64,000 nt of DNA. Origin: an uncultured Bifidobacterium sp. Lineage in GTDB: Bacteria; Verrucomicrobiota; Verrucomicrobiia; Limisphaerales; JADJPG01. The notes below the pieces were generated by a model. That model did not search any database. It was not told the DNA's origin and saw only the letters and a list, made by a program, of their open reading frames with translations. How positions within the stretch are numbered: the stretch's first letter is position 1; each line of letters starts with the position of its first letter. The DNA is taken from assembly GCA_964491875.1 (NCBI GenBank), contig CAZBIC010000026.1, positions 48,090-112,089 on the forward strand, in the 5' to 3' direction. Below, piece after piece: positions 26,395 through 41,989 of the stretch. The position numbers and the translations under genes were made by a program.

Positions 26395-27840
26395 CTACTG
26401 CTCCGACTCGTCGTTGGATTCCTTCAGCCCGAAGTGTTGCAGCTTCTCGCGCACGGTCTGGCGCGACATTTTCAACCACCGTGCCGCCCGCGCTTGATTC
26501 CCTTGCGCCAGCTTGATCGCGCGGGTGAAGAGCTCGCGCTCCATCGCTTCGAACACGCGTGCGTGAACATCAATTTCGGCGCCGCTCTTGGCCTCAGCCA
26601 GCAGCTCATCCATCAGGGCTTCGATCGAACCCGATCCCGCGGGCTTGTTGTGAAAAGCCGTGTCGCCGCCCTTGGCCAGCATCATTTCCAAGACCTCCCG
26701 GCTGATGGGAAAACCACGGGACGAGAGCAATCCCTGGCGCATCACGTTCTCAAATTGTCGAACGTTTCCCGGCCAGCGCTGGTCCTTGAGCCAGGCGAGT
26801 CCGGCGGGCTGGATGGACGCATCGGCCAGCTTCAGTTCCTCGCGAAAACGGCGGAGAAAATAGTCGGCGAGTGCCGGAATATCCTCCGCGCGCTCCCGCA
26901 GCGGCGGCAGCTTGATCACCACCGAACCGAGCCGGTAGTAGAGATCTTCGCGGAAATGCTTCTCCGTGATCGCCTGTTCCAAATCGCGGTGAGTGGCGGC
27001 GATGATGCGGACGTCCACCGGAATGCTTTCCTTGCCGCCGACGCGCTGGATGATCTTTTCCTGGAGCACGCGCAGCAGCTTCGCCTGCGTGAAGGCGGTC
27101 ATGTCGCCGATCTCATCAAGAAACAGCGTGCCGCCTTGCGCCTGCTCGAACCGGCCAATGCGACGCTGGTCCGCGCCGGTGAAAGCGCCGCGTTCGTGAC
27201 CGAACAGTTCGCTTTCGAGGAGCGTTTCCGGGATCGCCGCACAGTTCACGGCGATAAAGGGTTTCCCGGCGCGATCGCTGTGCTGGTAGATGGCGCGCGC
27301 CACCAGTTCCTTGCCGGTGCCTGTCTCGCCACGGATGAGAACGGTGGCGGACGTTCCGGCGACGCGACCGATCTCCTTGTAGACGGATTGCATCGCGCGA
27401 CTATTGCCGATGATGGCCTGGGCCGTTGGCTTGTCGGACGCCGCGCCGAGCTCCACGCGTTCGCTCATCAACCGGGAGCTCGCGACGGCGCGCTTCACCA
27501 CTTCGAGCATCTCCGCGACATCGAAGGGTTTGAGGATGTATTCGAAGGCGCCGAACTTCGTGGCTTCAATGGCCGTTTCCGTCGTGCCAAAGGCGGTCAT
27601 GAGCACCATCGGCAAGCGCGGCTTCTCGACGTGAATCTGCCGAATCAGCTCCAGCCCATCGAGACCGGGCAGGCGCAGATCGGTGATGACGAGATTAAAC
27701 TCCCCGCTCTTGGCGCGCTCCAGTCCTTCATCCCCGCGATGGCAGAGCGTGACAACAAATCCCTGGGACCGCAGCAGCTTCTCCAGCGACTGCGCGGACC
27801 GCGTGTCGTCTTCAATGACCAGAATGTGTGGCGAGTTCAT
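26395..27840 (-). CDS. Sigma54-dependent response regulator (NtrC family)
   Basis: REC (ILVIEDD...DLRLPGLDG), AAA+ domain with GETGTGKE and ESELFGHERGAFTGA, and C-terminal Fis-type HTH ARAARWLKMSRQTVREKL. Confidence 0.9.
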   Translation of the reverse strand: MNSPHILVIEDDTRSAQSLEKLLRSQGFVVTLCHRGDEGLERAKSGEFNLVITDLRLPGLDGLELIRQIHVEKPRLPMVLMTAFGTTETAIEATKFGAFEYILKPFDVAEMLEVVKRAVASSRLMSERVELGAASDKPTAQAIIGNSRAMQSVYKEIGRVAGTSATVLIRGETGTGKELVARAIYQHSDRAGKPFIAVNCAAIPETLLESELFGHERGAFTGADQRRIGRFEQAQGGTLFLDEIGDMTAFTQAKLLRVLQEKIIQRVGGKESIPVDVRIIAATHRDLEQAITEKHFREDLYYRLGSVVIKLPPLRERAEDIPALADYFLRRFREELKLADASIQPAGLAWLKDQRWPGNVRQFENVMRQGLLSSRGFPISREVLEMMLAKGGDTAFHNKPAGSGSIEALMDELLAEAKSGAEIDVHARVFEAMERELFTRAIKLAQGNQARAARWLKMSRQTVREKLQHFGLKESNDESEQ

Positions 27841-28807
27841 GCGTGTGTTCGATGGGCAGGACCATGCGGAAGATGGTGCCGTGATTCATCTGGGTGGAGT
27901 ATTCAAGAGTGCCGCCGTGCTTTTCAAGAATGCGCGCGGCGATGCTCAATCCGAGACCGGTGCCGCTGGCCTTGGTGGTGTAGAACGGATCGAAGAGCCG
28001 CTTCTGCACTTCCGCCGGAATGCCAGGGCCGGTGTCCGCGACCTCAAGGATGACATTGGTGAGCGTTCGAGGACCACGACGGCGCGTCTCGGTCCGCGTC
28101 CGCAAAGTCACAGTTCCATCGCGACCAATCGCCTCGGCGGCGTTCTTCACCAGGTTGATCAACACCTGCTTCAACTGGGCGGCGTCCGCTCGAATATGCG
28201 GATCGGCGAGGTAATCCTCTTTCAGGGCGATGCTCGACTTCTTCAACTCCGGCGAGAGCAGCGGCACCAGTTCGCGCAAGGGCTGGGTGGCCTTCACGAC
28301 CACGAACTGCGGCTCCGCCGGGCGCGCGAAGTCGAGCACGTCCTTCACAATTTGTTCGAGCCGCGCAATCTCGCCCGTGAGAAAGACGTTGTCCTCGAAC
28401 TCCTCGGAGCCCTTCTTCAACAACGCTTGTTGCGTAAAGAGGCGAACGCGGATCGAAGTAAGCGGATTGCGAATCTCGTGGGCGATGCCCGCCGCCAGCA
28501 CGCCGAGCGAAGACAACTTTTCCTGACGTTCGATGATCAGCTGGCTGCGCCGGAGATTCTCCTGAAGCGGCGCAATCACACCGCGATAGGTGAAGACGGT
28601 CAGCGCGCCGCCCATGACCAGCAACACGACCGATGACCAGGTCAACATGCGGTGGAGCTCGGCGATGTCGTCCTGCGTGGGCACATACTCCGGACTGCGC
28701 CGGAGATTGTTCACCTGCTGCCACGTGTACATTTCCGTCCAGACGATGACCATGAGCGCCACCGCGATGGCCAGCAGATGAACAGTGGTGCGCATTTTCG
28801 GCGTCAT
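27812..28807 (-). CDS. Sensor histidine kinase (two TM segments, very short external loop)
   Basis: H-box AAGIAHEIRNPLTSI, DTGPGIP and GTGLGLSIA ATPase boxes. It overlaps the regulator gene by 29 nt. Confidence 0.85.
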   Translation of the reverse strand: MTPKMRTTVHLLAIAVALMVIVWTEMYTWQQVNNLRRSPEYVPTQDDIAELHRMLTWSSVVLLVMGGALTVFTYRGVIAPLQENLRRSQLIIERQEKLSSLGVLAAGIAHEIRNPLTSIRVRLFTQQALLKKGSEEFEDNVFLTGEIARLEQIVKDVLDFARPAEPQFVVVKATQPLRELVPLLSPELKKSSIALKEDYLADPHIRADAAQLKQVLINLVKNAAEAIGRDGTVTLRTRTETRRRGPRTLTNVILEVADTGPGIPAEVQKRLFDPFYTTKASGTGLGLSIAARILEKHGGTLEYSTQMNHGTIFRMVLPIEHTHELATHSGH

Positions 28808-28823
28808 AACGTGAATGCGGAGA

Positions 28824-29339
28824 TCAACGATTCATCTGCCAGAGCGTCCAGTTGAGCACCGCCGCGAAACTGACCCATGCCAGGTACGGCGCGAGCAACA
28901 GGGCGGCGGTCCGGTGAACGTTCCAGAACGAAAGGAGCGTCATCAGAATGCCAAGCCACAAACACACGATATCCACGAAGGCGAGAGCCGGGTTCTTCAG
29001 CCCAAAGAACAGCAAGGACCAGAGGGCGTTGAAGACCAGCTGGGCGAGAAACAGCGAGAGCGGCCGGAGGTTCGCCGCGAATCCACCGCGCCGCCAGACC
29101 AGCCATGCCGCGGATGCCATCATGAAGTAGAGCGCCGTCCAGACCGGACCAAACAGCCACGACGGAGGAGTCCACGAAGGCTTGCTCAATTGCGCATACC
29201 ATTCCCCCGGCATGAAGAGCGCGCCGAAGGTGGCCGCGCCGAAACAGAGCGCCAGCCAACCGGCCAGGGCCAGCACCGAGCGGATGCGGTCCGGCATGGC
29301 GGCGGGAGAGAGAGGGGCCGTTGGCAAGATGGATGACAA
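28824..29339 (-). CDS. tspO: TspO/MBR tryptophan-rich sensory protein
   Basis: WYAQLSKPSWTPPSWLFGPVWTALYFMMASAAWLVW plus a five-TM layout. Confidence 0.85.
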   Translation of the reverse strand: MSSILPTAPLSPAAMPDRIRSVLALAGWLALCFGAATFGALFMPGEWYAQLSKPSWTPPSWLFGPVWTALYFMMASAAWLVWRRGGFAANLRPLSLFLAQLVFNALWSLLFFGLKNPALAFVDIVCLWLGILMTLLSFWNVHRTAALLLAPYLAWVSFAAVLNWTLWQMNR

Positions 29340-29356
29340 GAAGGTTCCGGAGAACG

Positions 29357-29809
29357 TCAGTCTTTCTCGTATTCCTTGAGGAAGCCGATGAACTCGCGGC
29401 GATGATCTTCTTCGCCCCCGAGAATTCCAATGACCATGTCCTGCGTGACGTAATCAACGCCGTCGCAGAGTTTGATGATCTTGTTGTACTGGGCGATGGC
29501 TCCTTCTTCCGCCTTGATGACGCCCTTGATCACCGCCACGACGTCCGTGGTGTCCTTCTTGGGCTGGAGGAATTTCTGGCTGCGCGACAAATCGAGCGAG
29601 CCGGGCACCTGCCCGCCGATCGTCTTGATGCGAGTGGCGAGTTGCTGGGCGTGCTGCACCTCCGTCAGGACATCCGCCGCAAGGGCCTTCTTGATGACAT
29701 CCGAGCGGACGCCGTCGAGGTTCACGGAGGCAGCGATGTAGTTCTGAACTGTCTCCAGCTCCATGGCGTAGGAGAGGCAGAGCTCCTTGATGATGTGCTT
29801 GTTCTTCAT
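29357..29809 (-). CDS. Ferritin-like four-helix-bundle protein
   Basis: Ferritin-like helices with Glu/His ligand candidates (AMELETVQNYI, EVQHAQQL, EEGAIAQY, GGEEDHRREF). Start set at MKNKHIIKE (29809). Confidence 0.7.
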   Translation of the reverse strand: MKNKHIIKELCLSYAMELETVQNYIAASVNLDGVRSDVIKKALAADVLTEVQHAQQLATRIKTIGGQVPGSLDLSRSQKFLQPKKDTTDVVAVIKGVIKAEEGAIAQYNKIIKLCDGVDYVTQDMVIGILGGEEDHRREFIGFLKEYEKD

Positions 29810-30002
29810 ACGCCCGAACTCATAGCAGGCCCTGCGCCCGAAGCAAATCACCGCCAGATCGTTCGAATTGCCAAAGGCCACGCCCCGGTTGGCCAGTGAA
29901 TGAGCAGGGCTGGCTTCCGGCGCGCCATCCCCGATCGAAGGTCACCCCGAAAATTCCGCGAGTTTGCGCCCAAAGCATGGCTTAACGCGCCCTTTCTCAG
30001 GC

Positions 30003-30017
30003 TGGCACAAGGTCAGC
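30003..30017 (+). promoter_or_regulatory. Sigma54 (-24/-12) promoter candidate
   Basis: TGGCAC-AAGGT-CAGC, with GG and GC at the canonical spacing. The -24 element is perfect. The -12 element lacks the usual TT. Confidence 0.3.
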
Positions 30018-30075
30018 TAAAGCATTCGCGTGGTGAACGCTACGTTCGAAGAAAAACACAACTGAAGATCCGAAA

Positions 30076-30297
30076 ATGAAAACAAAACTCATTCTGAAAT
30101 CGTTCAGCGAACTTCCCGCGCCGGAATTCGACTCAGTCGATGCCTCGGGCCTCGAACAATCCGGTTCCACCTCGACTGACAGCGCGACCCCCGGAACCAG
30201 CGTTACCCGGGGTCGCTGGGATCCCAAAGAACCCACGACGGGAACTCTCTCCGCTGTGCTCGGTCGCATGGCTCCGGCGCAATACCATGTCAACTGA
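30076..30297 (+). CDS. Possible small protein (73 aa), unknown function
   Basis: ATG-initiated ORF downstream of the sigma54-like promoter with GC-rich third positions. It overlaps the preferred start of the next gene by 11 nt. No homology is recognised. Confidence 0.25.
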   Translation: MKTKLILKSFSELPAPEFDSVDASGLEQSGSTSTDSATPGTSVTRGRWDPKEPTTGTLSAVLGRMAPAQYHVN

Positions 30298-30835
30298 CTC
30301 CGCCAACACGACTGGCGATTCCAGCCCGGCCACGGTACCCACCCCGCTGGCCGTGCGTCCACGCAAACACCGCCTGTTGCTGGCGGATGATGACCGTGGG
30401 ATTCGCGAGTCGTTGGGCAAGCTGCTCCGCGGCGTCGGCTACGACGTCATCGAAGCCTCCCACGGCGGGCAGGTGCTGGAGATGGTATTCAACGAGCCGT
30501 TTGATTTGCTGTTGCTCGACCTGAACATGCCGGAGATGGATGGCTGGGAAACACTCTCCCACGTCACTCATCTCCGACCCACCCTGCCGATTGTGGTAAT
30601 CACCGCACAGCCGAACCAGCGGGGCTGGCTAAGCCGCGGTGGTGCCCATGCGCTGATGGAGAAGCCCTTGGATCTCCCTCTCCTGCTAAAAACTCTGCAT
30701 GAACTGCTCAGCGAGCAACGGCCTCAAGTTAATGCTGAAGAACCAACCAGCCGGCCCCGTTTCCGGCACCTGCCTCCCCGCAGGTTCACCATGGACTTCG
30801 CCAAGCAAGTCCGCGGCTGGGGAATCAATGACTAA
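30287..30835 (+). CDS. Single-domain (CheY-like) response regulator
   Basis: LLLADDDRGIRE...DLLLLDLNMPEMDG...VVITAQ...EKP. Start ambiguous between 30140 and 30287. Confidence 0.8.
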   Translation: MSTDSANTTGDSSPATVPTPLAVRPRKHRLLLADDDRGIRESLGKLLRGVGYDVIEASHGGQVLEMVFNEPFDLLLLDLNMPEMDGWETLSHVTHLRPTLPIVVITAQPNQRGWLSRGGAHALMEKPLDLPLLLKTLHELLSEQRPQVNAEEPTSRPRFRHLPPRRFTMDFAKQVRGWGIND

Positions 30836-30846
30836 CCCACTCCTTA

Positions 30847-31839
30847 ATGACTGATACAACCTGGCTCTGGATCGGATTCAACGTTTTCGTGCTATTCATG
30901 CTGGCGCTCGACCTCGGCGTTTTCCACCGGAAGGCGCACGTCGTTACCTTCAAGGAATCGATGACCTGGACGGTCGTGTGGATCAGCCTGGCGCTCGCCT
31001 TCAACGCCGGCGTCTGGCACTTCGCCGGACCGCAAAAGGGCCTCGAATTCTTCACCGGCTACCTCATCGAGAAGTCACTCAGCGTGGATAACGTGTTCGT
31101 CTTCGCCCTGCTCTTTTCCTACTTCACCGTGCCGGCGCAGTATCAGCACAAGGTCCTGTTCTGGGGCATCCTCGGAGCATTGATCATGCGCGCGGCCATG
31201 ATTGTCGCCGGCGCCGCGCTCATCACAAAATTCACCTGGATCATCTACATCTTCGGCGGGTTTCTCGTACTGACCGGTGTCAAAATGATCTTCAAGAAGG
31301 AGGAAGAAATTCATCCCGAGCGGAACCCAGTGGTGCGCTGGTTCAAGCGCCTCATGCCCGTCACCAGCGACTATCGCGGCGACAAGTTCTTTATCCGCGA
31401 GAACGGCGTCCGCATGGCGACTCCGCTCTTCGTCGTGCTGCTGCTCGTCGAGGTGAGCGATCTGATTTTTGCCGTCGACAGCATCCCGGCCATCTTCGCC
31501 GTCACCACGGACCCGTTCATCGTCTACACCTCGAACGTCTTCGCGATCCTCGGCCTCCGTTCGCTCTACTTCGCGCTCGCAGGAGTGATGGACAAGTTCC
31601 ACTACCTCAAGATCGGCCTGGGCGCCGTGCTGGCCTTCGTCGGCGTGAAGATGCTCCTCGCCCATTCCGCGTGGAAGATCCCCACCCTGCTCTCCCTCGG
31701 CGTTGTGGTCCTCATCCTGGCCATCGCCGTCGTCGCCTCGCTGATGCGGCCCCGGAAACCGAAAGCAGCGGACAAGATCGCGGGCGGCGGCCCCGGTGCC
31801 GCCATCAACCCAGTCGCGACCACGGTCGTCGAATCGTGA
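30847..31839 (+). CDS. TerC-family integral membrane protein
   Basis: FTGYLIEKSLSVDNVFVFALLF and later FAVDSIPAIFAVT. These are typical duplicated TerC motifs. Confidence 0.9.
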   Translation: MTDTTWLWIGFNVFVLFMLALDLGVFHRKAHVVTFKESMTWTVVWISLALAFNAGVWHFAGPQKGLEFFTGYLIEKSLSVDNVFVFALLFSYFTVPAQYQHKVLFWGILGALIMRAAMIVAGAALITKFTWIIYIFGGFLVLTGVKMIFKKEEEIHPERNPVVRWFKRLMPVTSDYRGDKFFIRENGVRMATPLFVVLLLVEVSDLIFAVDSIPAIFAVTTDPFIVYTSNVFAILGLRSLYFALAGVMDKFHYLKIGLGAVLAFVGVKMLLAHSAWKIPTLLSLGVVVLILAIAVVASLMRPRKPKAADKIAGGGPGAAINPVATTVVES

Positions 31840-31852
31840 ACCGTCCTCCGCC

Positions 31853-31900
31853 CCGGCGCGGCCCTTTGCAACTCATTTGCAAAGATTGAACCCGCGCCGG
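31853..31900 (+). promoter_or_regulatory. Nested palindrome / stem-loop
   Basis: Outer stem CCGGCGCGG (31853..31861) / CCGCGCCGG (31892..31900). It encloses the perfect inner palindrome CTTTGCAA-ctcat-TTGCAAAG (31864..31884). No U-tract follows. Confidence 0.4.
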
Positions 31901-31906
31901 GAATGA

Positions 31907-32281
31907 TTGCACTTGTTGCTGCGGTCGGACGTCGGATTAACTGCGAGCAGCGTGCAAAAACCGCGTCACACCTCCGTCTGTCGCGACGCCGCGAGCCTCC
32001 TCGCGGCCCTGGTTCTTTGCGCGCTGGTCCTCCTCTGCGGCACGCTCGCGGGCAGCCCTTCGTTGCATGAACACGTTCATCACGACGCAGAGCACGCTGA
32101 GCACGAGTGCGTCATTTCCCTGTTCGCCAACGGATCGATTCACTTCGAGCCCGCTGCTCCCGTGCACGCAGCACCCATCGTTTCAGCGGCATTGCCGGAA
32201 CCGCCGGCACTGACTGTTCTTCTTCCCGCGCTCACGTTGCTGTTTCCGCAGGAACGCGGCCCGCCCGTTCTCCCTTCCTGA
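31907..32281 (+). CDS. Possible small membrane-anchored His-rich protein
   Basis: Hydrophobic segment LLAALVLCALVLLCGTLAG followed by HEHVHHDAEHAEHEC. The start (TTG) is doubtful, and a GTG near 31951 is possible. Confidence 0.3.
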   Translation: MHLLLRSDVGLTASSVQKPRHTSVCRDAASLLAALVLCALVLLCGTLAGSPSLHEHVHHDAEHAEHECVISLFANGSIHFEPAAPVHAAPIVSAALPEPPALTVLLPALTLLFPQERGPPVLPS

Positions 32282-32437
32282 ATCCGCCTTCGCGGATTCC
32301 CCGCATCGTCCCTCGCGCGATGGCTGTGGCCGGTTCCATCCGGCCGCTGACACGGATCGCCCGAGGTTAAAACCCGTTCCATTTCGGAACCCCGCCGGCT
32401 CCAAGTCGCCATCGGGTTCCCGCAGCGCAATCAAGCC

Positions 32438-33166
32438 ATGTATCCATTCCGGCGTGAATGGCCTAACCCCGGCCAGTCCCGCGCGTTTACCTTGATCGAA
32501 TTGCTGGTGGTGATCGCCATCATCGCGATTCTGGCGAGCCTGCTGTTGCCATCGCTGGCGGGAGCCAAGGGCAAGGCGCGACAGGCCGCCTGCCTGTCCA
32601 ACCTCCGGCAGATCGGCATTGGCATGCGCATGTACGCGGACGACAACGACGGATTCCTGCCCACCACCACGCACGGCACCGGCACCAATGCTTCGTGGAT
32701 TTACCAGCTGGCGTCCGACTTGGGAAACGTCGACAAGATTCGCGCCTGCGCTTCCGACCCCAAAGCGGAAGACCGCCTCTCCGTGGCCGGCACCAGCTAC
32801 ATCATGAACGAATTCACCTCGGTCGATGCCGTGGATCCGTTTGGCTTCACCGACCCGAATGATTCCTTCCGTAAAGTCGACGCGCTCGCCAATCCCGCCG
32901 AGACCATCACCGTCTTCGAATGCGCGAACGGGATGAGCCCGAGCATTTTCAACGATCACACCCATTCCCGAAACTGGCTGACCGGCTGGCAATCGGTCAT
33001 CCGCGACATCCAGCCGGACCGCCACGCCACCGGCGGTCCCCGCGGTGATCACAGCAGTGGCGTGGCGAACTATCTCTTCGCGGACGGCCACGCCGTCGCG
33101 CTGCAAGCAGCACCGTTGAAGCAACGGATTCAGGCCGGAGACAACTTCGCGCGACCAGCCCAATAA
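32438..33166 (+). CDS. Prepilin-type N-terminal cleavage/methylation protein with DUF1559 (H-X9-DG) domain
   Basis: [25 protein letters not shown]-terminus and C-terminal [12 protein letters not shown]. Confidence 0.85.
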
Positions 33167-33234
33167 GAATTTCAGACCAACCCTGAACAGGACCAACCGT
33201 CACGGACGACACGAAACAACATCCATCAATCAGC

Positions 33235-33963
33235 ATGAAAACCAACCTACTCCGAATCGCCGGCCTGATAAGCGCCGGCATTCTCGGCGCCAGCAGCGCA
33301 GTGCAGGCACAAACCACCCTGAGCACCGAACACGTCGACATCGGCGTCGCCTACGAAGACGGCGCGTGGGATCTCCACGTTCACGACGAAACCAACGACG
33401 TCGAATACGAACCCGTCGACGCCATCCTGCAAGTCGGCGCGGCGGCGGAAACAACCGTCTCGTCCAATCCGCTCTTCAGATTCCTCGGCACCGCCGGCAG
33501 CGCCACCTGGATCCTGCCGGCCGTGCAGAATCCCGGCCTGCTCTTCCTCGGCTTTGGCGCAGAAGAAATCGAGTCCGGCGTGTTCGCCGGAGACAGCATC
33601 AGCGTGCATCTGCGCAGCGTGAATGGTCCCGGGACCTTCGCCGTGTTCGCGTTCGATGGCGCGACCGGCAACCCGCAAGTCTTCATGAACTCCGGCGATG
33701 GATTTGGAGCCGGCGATTCATTCCTCGTGCCCGCGGGTGGTCACTCCGATCTGAACTGGGCCTTCAGCACGCCCGGCACCTACACCGTGAGCTTCGAAGC
33801 CTCGGGAACGTTGGTCGATGGCAACGCGTTCATCACCAGCGGCCCGGTTGACTACACCTTCCAGGTCGTGCCCGAACCCTCCACCTGGGCGTTGCTCGGC
33901 GTGTCGTTCGCCGGCTTCGTGCTCTGGCAACTGCGCCGTCGTCACACCGCCGCGCAGCCTTGA
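33235..33963 (+). CDS. Secreted TIGR03769-like (choice-of-anchor-M-like) surface protein with PEP-CTERM anchor
   Basis: Signal peptide. Motifs STEHVDIGV, ATWILPAVQNPGLLFLGFGAEEI and GGHSDLNWAFSTPGTYTVSF. C-terminal VPEPSTWALLGVSFAGFVLWQLRRR. Confidence 0.75.
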   Translation: MKTNLLRIAGLISAGILGASSAVQAQTTLSTEHVDIGVAYEDGAWDLHVHDETNDVEYEPVDAILQVGAAAETTVSSNPLFRFLGTAGSATWILPAVQNPGLLFLGFGAEEIESGVFAGDSISVHLRSVNGPGTFAVFAFDGATGNPQVFMNSGDGFGAGDSFLVPAGGHSDLNWAFSTPGTYTVSFEASGTLVDGNAFITSGPVDYTFQVVPEPSTWALLGVSFAGFVLWQLRRRHTAAQP

Positions 33964-34035
33964 ACAACCCTTTGCTGTGGGCCGCCTCGCGGCCGGGCGG
34001 GGACTGACTCACCCCGGCTGATACAGCACCTGAAA

Positions 34036-34080
34036 GGCGGTGGCCGGCTAATCCTTTCTCCGGCCACCGCCCGCAGTTTT
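34036..34080 (+). terminator. Strong hairpin, probable intrinsic terminator/attenuator
   Basis: 12-bp perfect stem GGCGGTGGCCGG (34036..34047) / CCGGCCACCGCC (34060..34071), then CGCAGTTTT. Confidence 0.6.
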
Positions 34081-34108
34081 ACCAGAAACGTCTGCCGTTC
34101 CCGATGCC

Positions 34109-35155
34109 ATGAATGCTGTTCCGATTGTTCTCGGTCTCGCCGCCTCGCTCGCCGCTGACGGCGTTGCGCAAACCGATTTCACCACTCTCACCCGTGAGCA
34201 TACGGATATGCGCATCCTCTACAGCCCCACCGGCAGCAACGTGCCGGAGCTCGTGATGCGCGATGAAGATCGCAGCCTCAATCACCGGACCAATGACGTC
34301 ATCCTCATCGCAAAGGAACAAGCGCGCCTCACCCTTCCGGCCGGCACTCCGTTTGGCGACGCAGGGCAGCCGTTCTGGATCCTGCCGCAAACGCAGAACG
34401 CGAAACTGCTTTACCTCGGCGTCTCCGCAGAGGGCATCGCCCAGAACATCTTCAACGGACCCCTGACCATCTCGCTCAAGCGTCTCGAAGGCCCCGGATA
34501 TTTCATGGCGTGGCAGGCCACCGGCCCGGGCCAGTTCAACATCCGCGTGAACACTCGCGACGGCATCTCCGCCGCTGACGCGTTCACGCCCATCATCGGC
34601 AGCCACGAGCACTTCAACTGGGGCTTCAGCTCCGCCGGCGTCTTCTCGCTCACGTTCCAAGTCACCGGCCGGCGCCTCGGCGAGAGCACCAACATCACCA
34701 GCCCGGAATGCACTTTCGTCTTCCACGTTCTCCCGCTCGCGCCGCCGACCAACTTCGTCGCCTGGCAGCGCAGCCACTGGCCGCCGGGATTCAATCCCGC
34801 CATCGCGGCCGGCTCAGCTGATCCCGACGGCGACACATTCAGCAACTGGCACGAATACGCGTTCGGGCTTTCACCTACGAATGTGAATCCCATCACCACA
34901 GCCCCAGGCTTCGCGTGGATCGAAGAAGGCACGCAACGCTTCGGCAGCCTCGCCATCACGCGCTATCAGCCCGCGCTCGATCTCGACTACGCCGTGGAGG
35001 CGGCGGACGCGATCATTGGTCCATGGACTCGGCTCGAAAATGTCACTACTCTTGAGCCGAACCCAGACGGGTTGACTGAGCGGGTGACCGTGCGCGACAC
35101 CAAACCCGGCTCGAGCCCGCAGCGGTTCCTCCGACTAAACGTGAAGCCGCGCTGA
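34109..35155 (+). CDS. Secreted TIGR03769-like surface protein, paralog of 33235..33963, with a different C-terminal module
   Basis: Signal peptide. Motifs TREHTDMRI, PFWILPQTQNAKLLYLGVSAEGI and GSHEHFNWGFSSAGVFSLTF. The C-terminus ends ...SSPQRFLRLNVKPR rather than PEP-CTERM. Confidence 0.7.
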   Translation: MNAVPIVLGLAASLAADGVAQTDFTTLTREHTDMRILYSPTGSNVPELVMRDEDRSLNHRTNDVILIAKEQARLTLPAGTPFGDAGQPFWILPQTQNAKLLYLGVSAEGIAQNIFNGPLTISLKRLEGPGYFMAWQATGPGQFNIRVNTRDGISAADAFTPIIGSHEHFNWGFSSAGVFSLTFQVTGRRLGESTNITSPECTFVFHVLPLAPPTNFVAWQRSHWPPGFNPAIAAGSADPDGDTFSNWHEYAFGLSPTNVNPITTAPGFAWIEEGTQRFGSLAITRYQPALDLDYAVEAADAIIGPWTRLENVTTLEPNPDGLTERVTVRDTKPGSSPQRFLRLNVKPR

Positions 35156-35821
35156 ATGAATCGATTCAAACCAGTCAAACGTCGACACCTCGTCCTCCTC
35201 GCCATGACCGCAGCCGCGCCACTGCTCCTGTCATTGCCGCTGCTCGCGCAGACCAATTCCACGCCCACCCAGCGCGGAGAAGTCCGCGGCAAGCCCATCC
35301 AACGCCTGCCCGCCACACCCGCTCCGGCCAAGGCGCCCGATGACACGCGCGTGACCGCATTGGACGCGCCCGACGCGCGCGACGGAGCATTCACGATCCT
35401 GAGTTTCGAAAAGCTTTCCGCCTACGACTACTTCGTCACCGAGGTTCCGTCCCTACTCGAACCCGAGCGCCTGGTGCTGCGCTCGACCAACTCCATTCCT
35501 CCTCAAATCAAGGCCTACAACGGAAAGCGCGTCAGCATCAGCGGATTCGTCCGCCCCCTGCGCACGCAGAACCGGCTGGTCACGGAGTTCCTCCTCCTGC
35601 GGGACCAGGGCACCTGCTGTTTCGGGTCGCGCGCACAGATGAACCATTTCGTCCGCGTGAAGCTCAAGGGCGGCGGATTCTCCCCGGGACTTCCCGTGCC
35701 CTACAAGGCCACCGGCACGCTGACCGTCGGCGAGGAATACGTGGGCGAATTCCTCACCAGCATCTACTCGATGGACGCTGAAAAAGTCGTGCCGCAGCAA
35801 GAGGAACCCACCGGGCTATGA
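35156..35821 (+). CDS. DUF3299-domain protein
   Basis: FTILSFEKLSAYDY...IPPQIKAYNGKRVSISGFVRPL...EFLLLRDQGTCCFG...NHFVRV matches my recollection of the DUF3299 pattern. The start abuts the upstream stop (TGAATG). Confidence 0.7.
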   Translation: MNRFKPVKRRHLVLLAMTAAAPLLLSLPLLAQTNSTPTQRGEVRGKPIQRLPATPAPAKAPDDTRVTALDAPDARDGAFTILSFEKLSAYDYFVTEVPSLLEPERLVLRSTNSIPPQIKAYNGKRVSISGFVRPLRTQNRLVTEFLLLRDQGTCCFGSRAQMNHFVRVKLKGGGFSPGLPVPYKATGTLTVGEEYVGEFLTSIYSMDAEKVVPQQEEPTGL

Positions 35822-36360
35822 ACCAGTCCGCACCAGACGAATTCTCCCCGGCGTCGGCCGGTGCAGCGGCGACCTCGACGGAAAGCCGCCTCGCCTGGGC
35901 GCTGGCCTTTTGCAGTCGCGCACAACTGGTGATGACGCCGGCGCGGAAGAAAATTCTCCTTTACCTCGCCGCACGTCGCGTCCCGACCAGCATTGAGCTG
36001 ATGACCCGCTCGGAGGAGCTGCACGGCTCTTGCGACACTGTGACGATCTACCGCGCGCTTGGCCTCTTCAAGGAGATCGATCTCGTGCGCCAGGTCGGGC
36101 TCCTGAAGAAGAACGCATTCTACGTGCTCAACGCACCGGGCGCACCGTGTCACTATCTCATCTGCCGCCACTGCGAGACATTGATCGAACTGCCCTGCGA
36201 TGACCCGGTGCAGGAATGGGCGCAACGCGCTTCCGCCGCACACGGGTTCACCTCGGTTTATCACGAGCTGGAAATTTATGGCGTGTGTCCACGCTGCGCC
36301 GAAAGCCAGTCCGGCCAGCCGCGTCCCTCGAAGCTTCGCATCCGGCTCGACCCGGTGTGA
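35818..36360 (+). CDS. Fur-family metalloregulator (Fur/Zur-like)
   Basis: Winged helix ARKKILLYLAARRVPTSIELM...VTIYRALGLF. Two CxxC pairs (CRHCETLIE, CPRCAES). The ATG overlaps the upstream stop (ATGA). Confidence 0.85.
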   Translation: MNQSAPDEFSPASAGAAATSTESRLAWALAFCSRAQLVMTPARKKILLYLAARRVPTSIELMTRSEELHGSCDTVTIYRALGLFKEIDLVRQVGLLKKNAFYVLNAPGAPCHYLICRHCETLIELPCDDPVQEWAQRASAAHGFTSVYHELEIYGVCPRCAESQSGQPRPSKLRIRLDPV

Positions 36361-36406
36361 CACGAGGAGTTGACCACTTGCCGTCGACGCACTAAATCCA
36401 ACAGCA

Positions 36407-36889
36407 ATGCACATGAAAAACTTGATCACCCTCGGCGCCACGGCGCTGGTCGCCGCCGCCCTCACCGCTTGCAAGGACTCGCACGACCACGATCACGCCG
36501 GACACGGTCACCACCACACGCCACCGCACGGCGGCACCGCCGTCGCGCTGGGAAAGGAGGAGTTTCATCTCGAACTCGTCTTGGACGCGACCAACGCCAC
36601 GATGCAGGCCTACGTGATGGACGGCCATTTGGAGAACTACATCCGCGTCACCAACACCACCTTCAACGTCGTGGCATCGACCGACGGTCCGCCGAAGACG
36701 CTGACGTTTCAGGCCGTGGCCAGCACAGCCAGCGGCGAGAAAGTGGGCGACACCTCTCTCTTCGAAGCGAAGGCAGACTGGTTGAAGACCACGCCAAAGT
36801 TCGACGGCGTGCTTGAGGAACTCACGGTGCGCGGGAAGAAATTCGAGAAAGTCACTTTCAACTTTCCCAAGGGCAACCACGCCCACTGA
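36407..36889 (+). CDS. His-rich lipoprotein
   Basis: Lipobox AALTAC, followed immediately by KDSHDHDHAGHGHHHTPPHGG. The C-terminus ends KGNHAH. Confidence 0.6.
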   Translation: MHMKNLITLGATALVAAALTACKDSHDHDHAGHGHHHTPPHGGTAVALGKEEFHLELVLDATNATMQAYVMDGHLENYIRVTNTTFNVVASTDGPPKTLTFQAVASTASGEKVGDTSLFEAKADWLKTTPKFDGVLEELTVRGKKFEKVTFNFPKGNHAH

Positions 36890-36897
36890 CACCGCCC

Positions 36898-37263
36898 TCA
36901 GATCAGCACGACCGTGATCCCCTCATTGGCGCGCTCGAGATCCGAGTCGCCATTGAGTTCCGGAAAGCGGTTCAGCGCATCGAGGGTCGCCGCATTGAAA
37001 ATGCTCAACTGCTCGCCGGGAATGTAGCCCGAGATGGCACCTTCCTTCTTGCGCAGCGCCAGCGATTTCCTCAAGGCGTGACACAGCTTCCCGCCGACTC
37101 CCGACGAGCCGTAGCCGTGAATCACCTTCAGCACCCGCACCCGCCGGGATTTCGCTGAACGCAACTCCTCCGCGAGCCGGCGACGAGCCTCGTCCACAGT
37201 CGGGAAATCCATCTCCAAATTCACGCAGTGAACAAAACGCGGCAGGTTGGACGGTGACTTCAT
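36898..37263 (-). CDS. Smr-domain-like protein
   Basis: VDEARRRLAEELRSAKSRRVRVLKVIHGYGSSGVGGKL resembles the Smr core (iIHGkG). Start set at MKSPSNLPRF (37263). Confidence 0.65.
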   Translation of the reverse strand: MKSPSNLPRFVHCVNLEMDFPTVDEARRRLAEELRSAKSRRVRVLKVIHGYGSSGVGGKLCHALRKSLALRKKEGAISGYIPGEQLSIFNAATLDALNRFPELNGDSDLERANEGITVVLI

Positions 37264-37336
37264 GGTCGTAGCGCTGAAGGATAGGCGGTCGCAGCGCAGC
37301 CGGCAATGCCACGGAAGAATCCGACGACGAACAAAG

Positions 37337-39361
37337 TCACGGACCGAGGATGACGTTGCCGCTTCGGTTCGTGGAAAGGAAGTAACCACCACCGAGGTTC
37401 TGACGTTGCAGCAACGCCCCGGCGAACGAGATCGATTTGCCACCCGCTGGCGGCACGACGGCCCCACTAAAGCGTCCGGTGGATTTGCTGACGGACAGTG
37501 AGAGACGGTTCGCGCTTTGATTGACGAAGGTGTTCTGGGGCGTGAGCTGAATTTGGTTCGCGAACTCAGTCGCTACGTTGTCGAACGAGAACTCCACGAA
37601 ACCGTTGGTCATGCTCAGCAAAGGCTGGGTCGCGGTTGGCGAGAGGTATTGGCTCCCGAGCAGACTCGTAAGATTCGTAAATCCCGCGGGCGAAACCTTG
37701 CCAGTCGGTTGAGCCTGCTTGAACCAATGCACCCATCCCTCGATGTCACCGCTGGTTTGATTGGTGTCGATGATGGCGGCAGAAAGGAACGAGCCTTTGC
37801 CGTGATAAAGCACCGCATACAACGGCCAGTCGCCACTCTTTCCCATCGCCGCTCCGTGAGAAAACTTCGTCCCATCGGCCAGCGATCCAGCGCAGGCGAT
37901 TACTCCCTTCGTTGACACGCTGACCGTCGCGTAGCCTTCACCCTGCGGTGAGGCTGGCGCATTCGTTTCAGGCAGGATGCAGACCGTATATCGACCGGCC
38001 TGCGGCGCGGGATTGGTGCGGCCAAACGCGGATCGATTCAACGCGAGAGCCGATGTCCAAAGCGCGACGGCATTCGTGGGCTGCTCGCTCACGACGCCTT
38101 CAATGCGGTCGGTGTGATTGGTCAGGTCGAGATTCACTCTGGCGATCAGCGGATTCGTGCCGGTGCGCTTGAAAAAGCATTCCCCCGAGCCATCGAAGGC
38201 GAGTGCACCCGCGGCCGTGTAAGTTTTCCCGTTTTGTATCACCTTCGCCGAGTACGTGCCGGAACTCGCAAGCGTGAGCTGCATGAAGCCGGACGAGCGC
38301 TGGTCCGGTTCCAAACTGTCGCGAAACAAACCGGTATAGGTTCCGGCGAGACTGAGAAAGGGATTCGGGACAAACCGCGCGTTGAACGTGAGGTTCGATG
38401 TCATCACAAACTTCAAGCTCGCGTTCGCCGAAGAGGTGGAACCAGTCCAACCCGCGAAGAGGTTTCCCGGCGCCGCCTTGGCAGTGAGCGTGTATTGACG
38501 ACCTACATTGAGCAGTTGGGTGTTGGTCGCGCCGCTGATCGTTCCCGCGCCGTCGACCGAGAGGAAGAGCGGCTCACGCGCTGGCCCGATACGCGACGGG
38601 AGAATCGGAAACTCCGCAGTCGAATAATCGATCATCAGATCGTCGTAGTAGTGATTGGCGGGGCTGGTCTTGTCGTGGTCATCGTAACGTCCGAAACACA
38701 CCGTCCGGCAAAACTCGTTCAGCAGTGAGATTGAAGAGCTGCCCACAAGTTCCCACGTCGTTGCGTCGTAGACTTTGAGTTGGGCGCGGCGATTCGGCTG
38801 GTCCCAGAGCAACGTCACCCAATAGGTCGTGTTGGCCCTGACGATGAATGGATCGCGAGTCCCCGCTTGCGTGTGAATCTGCAGGACGAAATCCTCTCCC
38901 GGGAAATCCTGGAAGTTCAGCACGGCAAACTCATCGTCGCCCTCCATCGCGATCAGATCGTACGAGCCAAACGTCGAGCCATCGAAATCGCCGATGCGGA
39001 CAAAGCAGCCCATGCTTACCTTGGGGTGCGGCACGTCAAACGTGTACCGTGCGAACTCCCGATCCGTGTTGTTCCAAAACACGTAACCGCGGGTGGTCGA
39101 TTGATCGGAATAAAGATTCCCGCCCACCAACACCTGCGCGCCAAGGATCGGCTCGAAATCCGTCGTCACCCGCATGGCGCTGAGGGTGGAAGGAAAAGTC
39201 GTCCATGAACCGCCGCTGCCGTGCGTCGCGGCATTGAGCAAGTTGGAGGTTACCAACGATCCGCCTGAGCCGGACTCCATATCCAGATAGACATTCGCCG
39301 GCGTCGTCGCCGCGACGCCGCGAATGGCAAGGAGGATAAAAAGTAACAGGACGCGCAACAT
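37337..39361 (-). CDS. Large secreted protein of unknown function (contains a bacterial-repeat-like segment)
   Basis: Signal peptide MLRVLLLFILLAIRGVAA. The segment LSVDGAGTISGATNTQLLNVGRQYTLTAKAAPGNLFAGWTG...FNARFV resembles divergent InlB-B-type repeats. Confidence 0.6.
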   Translation of the reverse strand: MLRVLLLFILLAIRGVAATTPANVYLDMESGSGGSLVTSNLLNAATHGSGGSWTTFPSTLSAMRVTTDFEPILGAQVLVGGNLYSDQSTTRGYVFWNNTDREFARYTFDVPHPKVSMGCFVRIGDFDGSTFGSYDLIAMEGDDEFAVLNFQDFPGEDFVLQIHTQAGTRDPFIVRANTTYWVTLLWDQPNRRAQLKVYDATTWELVGSSSISLLNEFCRTVCFGRYDDHDKTSPANHYYDDLMIDYSTAEFPILPSRIGPAREPLFLSVDGAGTISGATNTQLLNVGRQYTLTAKAAPGNLFAGWTGSTSSANASLKFVMTSNLTFNARFVPNPFLSLAGTYTGLFRDSLEPDQRSSGFMQLTLASSGTYSAKVIQNGKTYTAAGALAFDGSGECFFKRTGTNPLIARVNLDLTNHTDRIEGVVSEQPTNAVALWTSALALNRSAFGRTNPAPQAGRYTVCILPETNAPASPQGEGYATVSVSTKGVIACAGSLADGTKFSHGAAMGKSGDWPLYAVLYHGKGSFLSAAIIDTNQTSGDIEGWVHWFKQAQPTGKVSPAGFTNLTSLLGSQYLSPTATQPLLSMTNGFVEFSFDNVATEFANQIQLTPQNTFVNQSANRLSLSVSKSTGRFSGAVVPPAGGKSISFAGALLQRQNLGGGYFLSTNRSGNVILGP

Positions 39362-41272: not shown

Positions 41273-41989
41273 TTGTGCTGGCAGCGGAACTCAACCAAAC
41301 ACATTGTGATCTCTGTCATCGCCGGCGCATTTTCCGCAGGAGTCATCCACGTCCTTTCCGGGCCGGACCACCTTGCAGCCGTCGCTCCTCTGTCGCTGGA
41401 TTCCCGGCGTCGCGCGTGGACGACCGGCGTGCGCTGGGGAATCGGCCATTCGGTCGGCGTCCTGATCGTCGGACTGCTTTCCCTCGCCCTGCGCGAAGTG
41501 CTTCCTCTGGAAGCCCTCTCTTCGTGGGCGGAGCGAATTGTCGGCGTTGTCCTGCTCGGCATCGGCATCTGGGGATTGCGCAGCGCGCTGACCCGCCATG
41601 TGCATGTGCATGAGCATTCTCACGACGGCCAGACTCATGCGCACATCCACCTGCACGGGCACGAGACCGCGCATTCGCACAACAACACCGCGCCAAAGGC
41701 TCACGCCCATTCCCATGCCGCCTTCGCCGTGGGAACACTCCATGGCCTCGCCGGCAGCTCCCATTTTCTCGGCGTCCTGCCTGCGATGGCGTTCCCCAGC
41801 AACGCGCAGGCGGCGGGCTATTTGATCGCCTACGGACTCGGCAGCATCATGGCGATGGGCGTGTTCTCCACGGCCATGAGCTGGATGACCCGCCACTTCG
41901 CCTCCCGCGGCGCGCACGCCTACCAATTCGTCATGGGCGGCTGTTCCGTCATCGCCATTGCCGTCGGCCTCTACTGGCTCGCCGCCTGA
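41273..41989 (+). CDS. Metal cation transporter with central His-rich loop (NicO/RcnA/UreH-like superfamily)
   Basis: VIHVLSGPDHLAAV and LHGLAGSSHF TM motifs flank the loop HVHVHEHSHDGQTHAHIHLHGHETAHSHNNTAPKAHAHSHA. Start uncertain (TTG 41273 or GTG 41306). Confidence 0.65.
   Translation: MCWQRNSTKHIVISVIAGAFSAGVIHVLSGPDHLAAVAPLSLDSRRRAWTTGVRWGIGHSVGVLIVGLLSLALREVLPLEALSSWAERIVGVVLLGIGIWGLRSALTRHVHVHEHSHDGQTHAHIHLHGHETAHSHNNTAPKAHAHSHAAFAVGTLHGLAGSSHFLGVLPAMAFPSNAQAAGYLIAYGLGSIMAMGVFSTAMSWMTRHFASRGAHAYQFVMGGCSVIAIAVGLYWLAA

Follow-up and report, generated by a model that had tools for sequence, protein, structure and literature searches.

The 64-kb stretch of DNA analyzed here (contig CAZBIC010000026.1, positions 48,090 to 112,089; "the window" below means this whole stretch) belongs to a Verrucomicrobiota bacterium, Limisphaerales/Pedosphaera-like, and carries on its plus strand a co-oriented unit of seven genes (31907-36889) behind a palindromic candidate operator. 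We consider that this unit probably encodes a Zur-type, zinc-repressed set of proteins for zinc capture at the cell surface and in the periplasm, with the membrane transporter encoded elsewhere. Four things are established by computation: the gene content of the unit, the conservation of its cassettes among relatives, the candidate operator with its association with zinc-uptake genes and the conservation of a hairpin within the unit. The genes run from a small His/Cys open reading frame (ORF) through a DUF1559 pseudopilin, a choice-of-anchor M (CoA-M) surface protein with a PEP-CTERM tail (CoAM1), the hairpin, a second surface protein (CoAM2), a DUF3299 protein and a Fur-family regulator to a lipoprotein of a family that we label LipoF. 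Protein domains were called from Pfam and NCBIfam profile scans of the window's ORFs at the curated cut-offs of each family:

31861..31887, no strand: candidate Fur-family-type operator (candidate Zur box), palindrome GCCCTTTGCAACTCATTTGCAAAGATT
31907..32281, plus strand: small single-transmembrane (single-TM) His/Cys membrane protein of a conserved family, first gene of the unit
32438..33166, plus strand: DUF1559 prepilin-type pseudopilin (N_methyl and SBP_bac_10)
33235..33963, plus strand: surface protein 1 (CoAM1), with signal peptide, choice-of-anchor M/TIGR03769 domain and PEP-CTERM (NF038134)
34036..34071, plus strand: intercistronic GC-rich stem-loop with a 12-bp stem, then a short U run (folding energy)
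34109..35155, plus strand: surface or secreted protein 2 (CoAM2), with signal peptide, choice-of-anchor M domain and a different beta-rich C-terminal domain (NF038134)
35156..35821, plus strand: DUF3299 periplasmic protein, ZrgE/PA4066 homologue (PF11736)
35818..36360, plus strand: Fur-family metalloregulator, candidate Zur (PF01475)
36407..36889, plus strand: His-rich lipoprotein (LipoF), lipobox LTAC, family without annotation

An earlier sequence-only reading of this DNA had listed six of these ORFs and their domain assignments, together with a lipobox, a hairpin and the junctions TGAATG and ATGA; each of these is present. It had begun the unit at 32438; the start is now moved one gene further 5', to the ORF at 31907 with the box at 31861-31887, and the rest of the run stands. 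Of the two surface proteins, protein 1 (33235-33963) alone has a PEP-CTERM tail, and protein 2 is without one. Hidden Markov model searches with TIGR03769, choice-of-anchor M, PF11736 and PF01475 all scored above cut-off. Read directly from the sequence, the CoAM2 stop codon abuts the DUF3299 start codon (TGAATG, seen as cgcTGAATGaat) and the DUF3299 and regulator genes overlap by ATGA (context ctATGAacc). The earlier proposal of a Fur-family regulator embedded in the operon is supported, the genes forming a conserved, co-oriented unit around it. The full run, small ORF to lipoprotein, is kept in L007-L009 and L015 (here and below, L numbers designate related loci), which represent the Verrucomicrobia metagenome-assembled genome JADJPG01 at 96-98% identity, and also in L010, where the lipoprotein is 60% identical.

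A palindromic candidate operator heads the unit

The candidate operator is a 27-nt palindrome (31861-31887; CCTTTGCAACTCATTTGCAAAG) that lies 20 bases past the TerC stop codon and directly 5' of the small ORF (31907-32281), with a TTGCAA-N5-TTGCAA core at 31866-31882; the consensus among related loci is TTTAATTGCAAATCATTTGCAATTAAA. It scores 23.7 bits against a weight matrix and is the only site of at least 16 bits in the window. Perfect cores occur in 10 nonredundant copies in 1.34 Mb of related verrucomicrobial DNA, compared with 0-1 in 20 dinucleotide shuffles, and seven control self-complementary hexamers in the same arrangement gave 0 copies in the same 1.34 Mb. The center of the box, TGCAAAT-N-ATTTGCA, has the 7-1-7 architecture of Fur-family operators, for which the Fur 7-1-7 inverted repeat serves as comparison (TGATAATnATTATCA). 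The likeness lies in an AT-rich 7-1-7 palindrome at the promoter of the first gene, often beside a Fur-family gene, whereas the TTGCAA half-site differs from boxes described for other phyla. Our literature searches found no paper describing a box with this half-site and none on a Zur regulon or box in Verrucomicrobiota.

The weight-matrix scan returned no second box of at least 10 bits before 34109, before 36407, near TerC or near 41273, a weak 12.2-bit site at 31936 being the sole exception among the sites looked for at that level. Of the upstream boxes that the sequence-only reading had suggested looking for, there is thus a strong one 5' of the unit and none before the lipoprotein gene at 36407. 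That reading had also counted TerC (30847) and a His-loop transporter (41273) as related metal genes flanking the unit; neither has a box, and proximity alone links them to it. A standard promoter and terminator scan found no sigma-70-like promoter.

In related loci the box heads genes of recognizable function. It is followed in L081 by the small ORF, a 484-aa protein, ZnuA, an ATP-binding cassette (ABC) protein, ZnuB, a MacB-type ABC protein, FtsX, a lipoprotein homologue and DUF3299, and in L063 by the small ORF, a TonB-dependent receptor and TonB/ExbBD. The order in L097 and L104 is ZnuA and ZnuB, box, small ORF, pseudopilin, CoA-M protein with PEP-CTERM, 346-aa CoA-M2 protein, ABC, ABC2, TPR, FUR and ZIP, and in L112, L113, L115, L141-L144 and L174 Fur-family genes abut the box. 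The gene set behind the box in relatives is the classical content of Zur regulons.

Box-controlled operons also share, between the small ORF and ZnuA, a conserved protein of ∼480-520 aa without a Pfam family (L081 3797-5251, L005 3521-5077, L097 4331-5800 and L021 4757-6196). Its sequence suggests a signal peptide, a coiled-coil N terminus and a beta-rich C terminus, and the protein may represent a new zinc component of the outer membrane.

The cassette recurs in related loci

A metagenome scan with a CoA-M alignment recovered 389 relatives, and the following counts are on 68 nonredundant loci. A pseudopilin gene lies directly 5' of CoAM1 in 28 of the 56 loci with enough flank, a CoA-M-family gene, usually of the 346-aa type, lies directly 3' in 30 of 53, and a box of at least 16 bits occurs within 2.5 kb upstream in 18 of 37. 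The cassette of box, small ORF, pseudopilin, CoA-M/PEP-CTERM protein, hairpin and CoAM2 recurs in dozens of loci, in the company of the following genes:

Fur-family gene in the locus: 14 of 68 CoAM loci
COG0523 GTPase (cobW and CobW_C) in the locus: 19 of 68 CoAM loci
ZnuA in the locus: 7 of 68 CoAM loci
ZIP in the locus: 5 of 68 CoAM loci
Lipoprotein homologue in the locus: 5 of 68 CoAM loci

The sequence-only reading had proposed metal acquisition and left the metal among zinc, manganese and iron. Comparative evidence connects each component of the unit with metal acquisition, and regulon content now shifts the choice toward zinc. The metal is most probably zinc because the same operator heads operons of ZnuA/ZnuB, of the TonB-dependent receptor and of the MacB-type ABC system, with COG0523, ZIP and Fur-family genes in the same loci. 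Zinc is further favored because DUF3299 (ZrgE) and anchored-repeat surface proteins have been found by experiment to be regulated by Zur or zinc elsewhere (PMC9817125, PMC6711530).

Some loci arrange these genes differently. Tandem arrays of 4-7 CoA-M genes are flanked by COG0523 genes and ZnuABC in L126 (1614-10158), L127 (2115-15058), L135 and L170. L095 (7437-11444) and L096 (7458-11366) carry a paralogous cassette in which a pseudopilin, a 272-aa PEP-CTERM protein and a CoA-M protein are followed by LpqE-like (PCuAC), SCO1 and cytochrome c genes, and a strong Zur-type box is absent from these paralogous cassettes. Copper, not zinc, may thus be the metal of some CoA-M cassettes.

The regulator and the metal

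The regulator (35818-36360) matches PF01475 with 51.3 bits (E = 1.6e-13; cut-off, 23.1). Its best relatives of solved structure are mostly Zur proteins, namely Streptomyces coelicolor Zur (ScZur; 3mwm; 5.8e-11), Bacillus subtilis PerR (2fe3), Xanthomonas Zur (7dh7), Mycobacterium tuberculosis Zur (2o03) and Escherichia coli Zur (4mtd). Both CxxC pairs of the structural zinc site are kept, C116-R-H-C119 and C157-P-R-C160 aligning with C90/C93/C130/C133 of ScZur. A relative of the regulator in L097, encoded in a zinc locus beside ZIP, has C72, H112, H149 and the C-terminal tail in common with it.

In L021 (10466-11815) and L044 (16205-17560), the Fur-family gene adjoining a lipoprotein homologue is flanked by genes for small Cys-rich membrane proteins, the upstream one in L021 being MerC-like (PF03203). 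The regulator of these loci is without the C111/H112 pair of the window protein.

An explanation that keeps the architecture and the Fur-family control would change the metal: the surface proteins and the lipoprotein would capture or buffer copper, or else cobalt, nickel, manganese or iron. It could appeal to the CoAM paralogues of L095 and L096, which precede LpqE-like (PCuAC), SCO1 and cytochrome c genes; to the weak DUF2946 match of the small ORF; to a CutC gene 3' of the cluster in L010; to TerC upstream of the window unit and the NicO-like His-loop transporter downstream; to the Pseudomonas aeruginosa PA4063-66 system, which handles cobalt-pyochelin (PMC11481552); and to the fact that the Fur-family subgroups are not separable for the window regulator. 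We nevertheless judge it unlikely. The genes under box control in relatives are the classical Zur set (ZnuA, ZnuB, COG0523, ZIP and the TonB-dependent transporter), and ZnuA in relatives, as read from its sequence, has His at the third ligand position. PCuAC or Sco1 was present in 0 of the 80 best CoAM1 loci, and the L095 and L096 cassettes are without a strong box, as the TerC and His-loop genes are without any.

Surface proteins and the intercistronic stem-loop

CoAM1 matches NF038134 with 152 bits (E = 1.8e-44; cut-off, 55) and TIGR03769 with 49.0 bits (E = 6.3e-13; cut-off, 30.9), and its PEP-CTERM tail, VPEPSTWALLGVSFAGFVLWQLRRRH (E = 1.5e-5), matches PF07589 with 25.3 bits (cut-off, 20.7) and TIGR02595 with 19.3 bits (cut-off, 16). 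CoAM2 is 32% identical to it (E = 7e-30) and scores 94.7 bits with NF038134 (E = 6.6e-27) and 31.2 bits with TIGR03769, just above the cut-off of 30.9; its C-terminal 140 aa are without an assigned family. In a 40-sequence alignment, the three motifs that had been noted as shared by the two proteins are conserved columns: H33/D35; W92-P95, L102, L105, G106 and E110; and H170, N174, W175 and F177. Conserved residues of CoAM1 include H33, D35, H48, H50, E57, E110, E111, D155, D161, H170, N174 and W175, and CoAM2 keeps the H, the D, E110 and H170 and is without H48 and H50.

An AlphaFold2 model of CoAM1 is all beta (predicted local distance difference test score [pLDDT], 90.5), and in it H33/D35 and H48/H50 would lie on neighboring strands (DSSP pairing of 33-41 with 44-51). 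Sequence and fold searches of the PDB found no solved homologue of CoAM1, returning generic Ig-like or beta-sandwich matches with a TM-score of at most 0.32. Matches to prion sequences, which cover the signal peptide and first strands, were dismissed as noise.

One close parallel to CoAM1 is ZepA (All3515) of Anabaena sp. PCC 7120, an exoprotein that has PEP-CTERM and a His cluster, is repressed by Zur and mediates the uptake of zinc (PMC10957091). Both are exoproteins of ∼230 aa with a signal peptide, PEP-CTERM, a beta-sandwich and a Fur-family operator (a candidate one in the window), and the ZepA cluster H-X2-9-H-[FY]-H has a counterpart in H33...H48-V-H50 of CoAM1. ZepA neighbors include ZnuA, COG0523, TonB-dependent transporters and other PEP-CTERM proteins and, in Planctomycetes-Verrucomicrobia-Chlamydiae (PVC) bacteria, a FUR-family gene (PMC10957091). 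Membership of CoAM1 in the ZepA family was rejected, however, at 15.2 bits with NF040463 (cut-off, 75), a match to the C-terminal anchor only, with no significant stretch; the domain in the window is choice-of-anchor M/TIGR03769, and CoAM1 is paired with CoAM2, with a pseudopilin of its own, with a small membrane protein and with a hairpin that is conserved. By analogy, CoAM1 may work like ZepA without belonging to its family.

A second parallel is the troA-dip0445 anchored-repeat ABC cluster of Corynebacterium diphtheriae with its surface proteins CmrA and CmrA2, which are repressed by zinc and Zur and whose function is unknown (PMC6711530). The window CoA-M proteins are likewise surface anchored and match TIGR03773, TIGR03772 and TIGR03769, but the C. 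diphtheriae system is Gram positive, sortase (LPXTG) anchored, multirepeat and encoded beside a TroA-type ABC importer, whereas the window proteins are single-domain proteins of a diderm, end in PEP-CTERM or another C-terminal domain, and have no importer in cis. TIGR03773 scored CoAM1 and CoAM2 at 101.9 and 82.3 bits, below its cut-off of 190.3, the TIGR03772 match was also below cut-off, and the window has no ABC importer, which places the unit outside the anchored-repeat ABC system proper.

Between the two surface protein genes, the strong hairpin described earlier is confirmed at 34036-34071, with a 12-bp GC stem, a folding energy of −33.5 kcal/mol and a z score of −4.3. A comparable stem-loop is found in 28 related CoAM1-to-CoAM2 spacers (median best-60-nt minimum free energy [MFE], −31.4 kcal/mol; z, −3.2), as compared with an MFE of −9.8 and a z of −0.9 for pilin-to-CoAM1 spacers. 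The structure is conserved while the sequence turns over, with a compensatory change in L099. The standard terminator scan missed the hairpin because its loop exceeds the 8-nt limit of that scan. It is probably a partial terminator or 3'-end stabilizer and probably raises the pilin/CoAM1 message above that of the distal genes.

The pseudopilin and the small His/Cys protein

The pseudopilin (32438-33166) matches N_methyl with 30.2 bits (cut-off, 21.2) and SBP_bac_10/DUF1559 with 28.5 bits (cut-off, 23.3). The TIGR04294 HX9DG motif is subthreshold (15.2 bits against 19) because 10 inserted residues lie between H196 and D216-G in the window copy; the H-X9-D spacing is seen in short homologues. 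Among 37 CoAM-linked pseudopilins, H79, D107, D173-H174-T-H176-S-R-x-W180 and D190 are kept at 97-100%, H196 at 91% and H218 at 97%. These CoA-M-linked proteins form a tight clade within a huge family of paralogues, which numbers 250,182 representative clusters at E ≤ 1e-3, and a [DE]HxHxxxW motif reaches a wider clade of ∼135 representative clusters. The CoA-M genes have in the DUF1559 pseudopilin a conserved partner rather than a bystander. No paper on DUF1559 and zinc was found in the literature.

The small ORF (31907-32281) encodes a single-TM protein with the motif SPxLHxxxHxD...EHxC...PP. Its start is uncertain, since an alternative GTG at 31952 would give a protein of 109 aa, like its homologues. 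These homologues, of 95-123 aa, head related gene runs in L097 (twice), L005 (twice), L001 and L095/L096 and lie directly 3' of the box in L081, L063 (twice) and L097, and the C terminus is conserved in L010. Pfam searches with the window copy and seven other family members gave nothing above threshold, DUF2946 reaching 17.2 bits (against 23.7) in the window copy only.

The whole cassette could be a previously undescribed Zur-controlled, pseudopilus-based device for scavenging metal across the envelope, an idea that we put forward tentatively and hold to be doubtful. A type II/type IV-like fiber, built with the dedicated pilin and its invariant H79 and DHTHSRxW, would display CoA-M proteins loaded with zinc, or draw them back, and deliver the metal to carriers in the periplasm. 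Such a fiber would account for the cassette's ability to exist without an outer-membrane receptor or inner-membrane importer of its own.

Lipoprotein, DUF3299 and the transporter

The lipoprotein carries the lipobox LTAC, and its mature N terminus is CKDSHDHDHAGHGHHHTPPHGG. The family has at least 434 members, with 234 matches in species-representative genome records, and is covered by neither Pfam nor NCBIfam; of the 80 genome records listed, nearly all are titled Verrucomicrobiota. Invariant residues are H35, H37 and H41 (HxHxxxH, then GG), E51, H54, E56, D72 and W125. AlphaFold2 models the lipoprotein as a beta-sandwich (pLDDT, 84.8) whose N terminus is disordered and rich in His. Searches of the PDB gave no sequence match, and Foldseek gave a best E of 0.067 and TM-scores of at most 0.34 to generic Ig-like or beta-sandwich folds, with no PA4063/ZrgA entry among the 50 matches listed.

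The DUF3299 protein (35156-35821) matches PF11736 with 33.9 bits (E = 3.9e-8; cut-off, 22) and the solved DUF3299 structure, PDB 4hsp, with an E of 4.1e-7 over residues 115-217. DUF3299 adjoins lipoprotein homologues in at least 19 genome loci, and in ∼37 of the 80 listed, the lipoprotein gene immediately follows those for an ABC ATPase and a MacB_PCD/FtsX permease and usually precedes at least one DUF3299 gene. The same position, between a MacB-type FtsX permease and DUF3299, is seen in L001, L003/4 and L005/6.

This arrangement recalls the Zur-regulated ZrgABCDE and PA4063-PA4066 systems, where the DUF3299 member is ZrgE/PA4066 and where ZrgD, with 101 aa, has a single TM (PMC9817125, PMC9820375, PMC8561739, PMC11481552); in Vibrio parahaemolyticus, DUF3299 is zrgE, part of the Zur regulon and 75-fold up under zinc limitation (PMC9817125). 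The likeness comprises DUF3299, a His-rich periplasmic metal-binding protein and a single-TM protein of ∼100 aa, with the lipoprotein in the position of ZrgA in relatives. The window, in contrast, is without the ABC ATPase and MacB-type permease of these systems and has its regulator inside the operon. The small ORF resembles ZrgD (∼100 aa, one TM) in size and topology only (PMC9820375) and is not DUF2607. Homology of the lipoprotein to ZrgA/PA4063 was rejected, the modeled fold being all beta versus ferredoxin-like and there being no DUF2796 match; on the strength of the model, the lipoprotein is a positional analogue of ZrgA and not a homologue.

That no transporter lies in cis, as the sequence-only reading had it for the neighborhood of the unit, is true of the whole window: tblastn with MacB-FtsX, ZnuA and ZnuB queries gave no match, and Pfam scans of the other large ORFs of the window found no ZnuA, ABC-3, ZIP, TonB-dependent transporter or FtsX. 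By analogy with relatives, the absent transporter looks like a lineage-specific loss or split, since ∼37 of 80 genome loci carry the MacB-type ABC protein and FtsX directly before the lipoprotein.

Lipoprotein homologues have neighbors beyond uptake genes, namely COG0523 at 13 loci, resistance-nodulation-division (RND) efflux at 10 and P-type ATPase at 7, as well as cation diffusion facilitator (CDF) genes and MerC-flanked Fur-family genes. In L036, L043, L069 and L091 they lie beside RND (ACR_tran), CusB-like membrane fusion protein (MFP), CDF and P-type ATPase efflux genes. With neighborhoods of both uptake and efflux, a general role in periplasmic zinc handling fits the lipoprotein better than a strict role as substrate-binding protein of an importer.

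Such neighborhoods would also suit a response to zinc limitation in which nothing is taken up, whether by envelope remodeling, by zinc sparing through zinc-independent replacements or by a surface or periplasmic zinc buffer or store. Zinc-free paralogues are common in Zur regulons. Examples of them, rpmE2 and rpmJ2, appear in PMC9817125; the window has no importer in cis, the occurrence of lipoprotein homologues in both uptake and efflux contexts fits a buffer, and the pseudopilin comes from a very large paralogous family. We find such a response quite improbable all the same, as the conserved His/Asp/Glu motifs of the secreted proteins are the opposite of what zinc-free substitutes would have, the cassette sits between ZnuA/ZnuB and ZIP in relatives, and the functional analogue ZepA promotes uptake (PMC10957091).

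Export is the other direction to consider: DUF3299 and the lipoprotein could be accessories of a MacB-type exporter encoded elsewhere that exports a zincophore or the CoA-M proteins, with the pseudopilin in a type II-like secretion route. Pseudopilins are components of type II secretion systems, PEP-CTERM proteins must cross the outer membrane, and the lipoprotein follows ABC and MacB_PCD/FtsX genes in the ∼37 of 80 loci given above. PA4064/65, in addition, has been modeled as MacB and implicated in export (PMC11481552). We hold this to be very unlikely, because the homologous Vibrio Zrg system supports zinc import, with ZrgA acting as a binding protein (PMC9820375), the window is without MacB, MFP or outer membrane factor (OMF) genes, and no zincophore biosynthesis genes were seen beside the cassette in the loci examined.

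Proposed mechanism and points against it

We return to zinc-repressed capture with a transporter encoded elsewhere. The window locus is best read as the fusion of a surface-capture cassette with Zrg-like accessory genes (DUF3299 and the lipoprotein) and an autoregulated regulator, and conserved His-rich motifs are present in all secreted components of the unit. We hypothesize that one Fur-family operator at 31861-31887 would control the whole seven-gene plus-strand unit, such that with sufficient zinc the metallated regulator would bind the palindrome and turn the unit off, its own gene included, and with zinc in short supply the unit would be derepressed. The stem-loop after the first CoA-M gene would set the pseudopilin and CoAM1 message above the distal genes. 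CoAM1, sorted by exosortase, and CoAM2 would bind zinc at the cell surface via their conserved His/Asp/Glu residues, the lipoprotein and DUF3299 would handle the metal in the periplasm, and inner-membrane uptake would fall to a transporter encoded elsewhere, which may be a MacB-type Zrg-like ABC system, ZnuABC or ZIP, the kinds that relatives carry in cis. In this scheme zinc as the metal is a prediction drawn from sequence, and so are the pairing of the regulator with the box, the capacity of the proteins to bind metal and the direction in which it is relayed.

Several observations count against this mechanism. In the regulator, the ScZur M-site residues H84/H86/E105/H122 correspond to P110/H112/Q132/H149, so that two of four are kept, and D65/C79/H85/H87 of ScZur correspond to R91/N105/C111/Y113, with one D-site position now Cys. 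The Zur model NF008646 scores 38.8 bits against a cut-off of 167, and scores range over no more than 34-39 bits among the models for Zur, Fur and PerR; with scores this nearly equal and far below the cut-offs, the subgroup is not callable from sequence, and the Zur assignment rests on regulon content. The distal half of the unit, after the hairpin, is without a box of its own, and its control depends on read-through. The CoAM paralogues in L095/L096 adjoin PCuAC/Sco1 copper chaperones, and homologues of the lipoprotein also adjoin RND, CDF and P-type ATPase efflux genes. Finally, zinc binding is not evident for PA4066 (DUF3299), and the MacB system of P. aeruginosa may work in export (PMC11481552).

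Genomic setting

The window probably spans the region of the chromosomal replication origin. A DnaA gene (11882-13267, plus strand) encodes Bac_DnaA, DnaA_N and DnaA_C domains, and the cumulative GC skew peaks and turns around 10-12 kb. Genes for ferritin, a histidine kinase and a sigma-54 response regulator lie at 26395-29881. The same three gene types stand directly beside a gene for a 76%-identical lipoprotein in L011-L014, which are without ∼6.5 kb relative to the window, comprising the response regulator, TerC and the whole cassette; this absence suggests that the cassette is inserted or deleted as a module.

The TerC/Alx gene (30847-31839, plus strand) matches TIGR03718 with 456 bits, and the NCBIfam subfamily name R_switched_Alx suggests riboswitch control. 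An Rfam scan of 30000-38000 matched no family, and no riboswitch was detectable in the stretch 5' of this gene (30000-30847). Downstream of the unit, the gene at 41273-41989 (plus strand) encodes a DsbD_2-family membrane protein that has a weak NicO/RcnA-like match and whose long loop, HVHVHEHSHDGQTHAHIHLHGHETAHSHNN, is rich in His; the gene has no upstream Zur-type box, and SufS, rhodanese and NifU genes lie 3' of it. On the minus strand, 44501-52279 encodes a 2,592-aa protein with LTD, CotH, Laminin_G_3 and Ig domains. Giant proteins of a similar LTD/CotH kind are encoded at the flanks of the zinc loci in L003, L004 and L097, a synteny that may be coincidental.

Implications

Verrucomicrobiota are abundant in soil, freshwater and sludge, and their zinc acquisition is essentially uncharacterized. 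The locus and its relatives supply an operator sequence that can be tested, and they link the choice-of-anchor M/TIGR03769 domain to Zur-type control in a second phylum, making it more plausible that this domain captures metal at the surface. They also bring forward a new family of lipoproteins standing in for ZrgA in Zrg-like systems. The conserved pairing of a DUF1559 pseudopilin with putative metal-binding surface proteins, finally, offers a first clue to the function of one clade in a family whose members number hundreds of thousands. If the pseudopilus-based device were real, it would give a first function to choice-of-anchor M/TIGR03769 across Actinobacteria and Verrucomicrobiota and to one DUF1559 clade. 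Current models are not overturned by these results; the picture drawn from ZepA, Zrg and the anchored-repeat systems is extended by a predicted operator and new partner genes.

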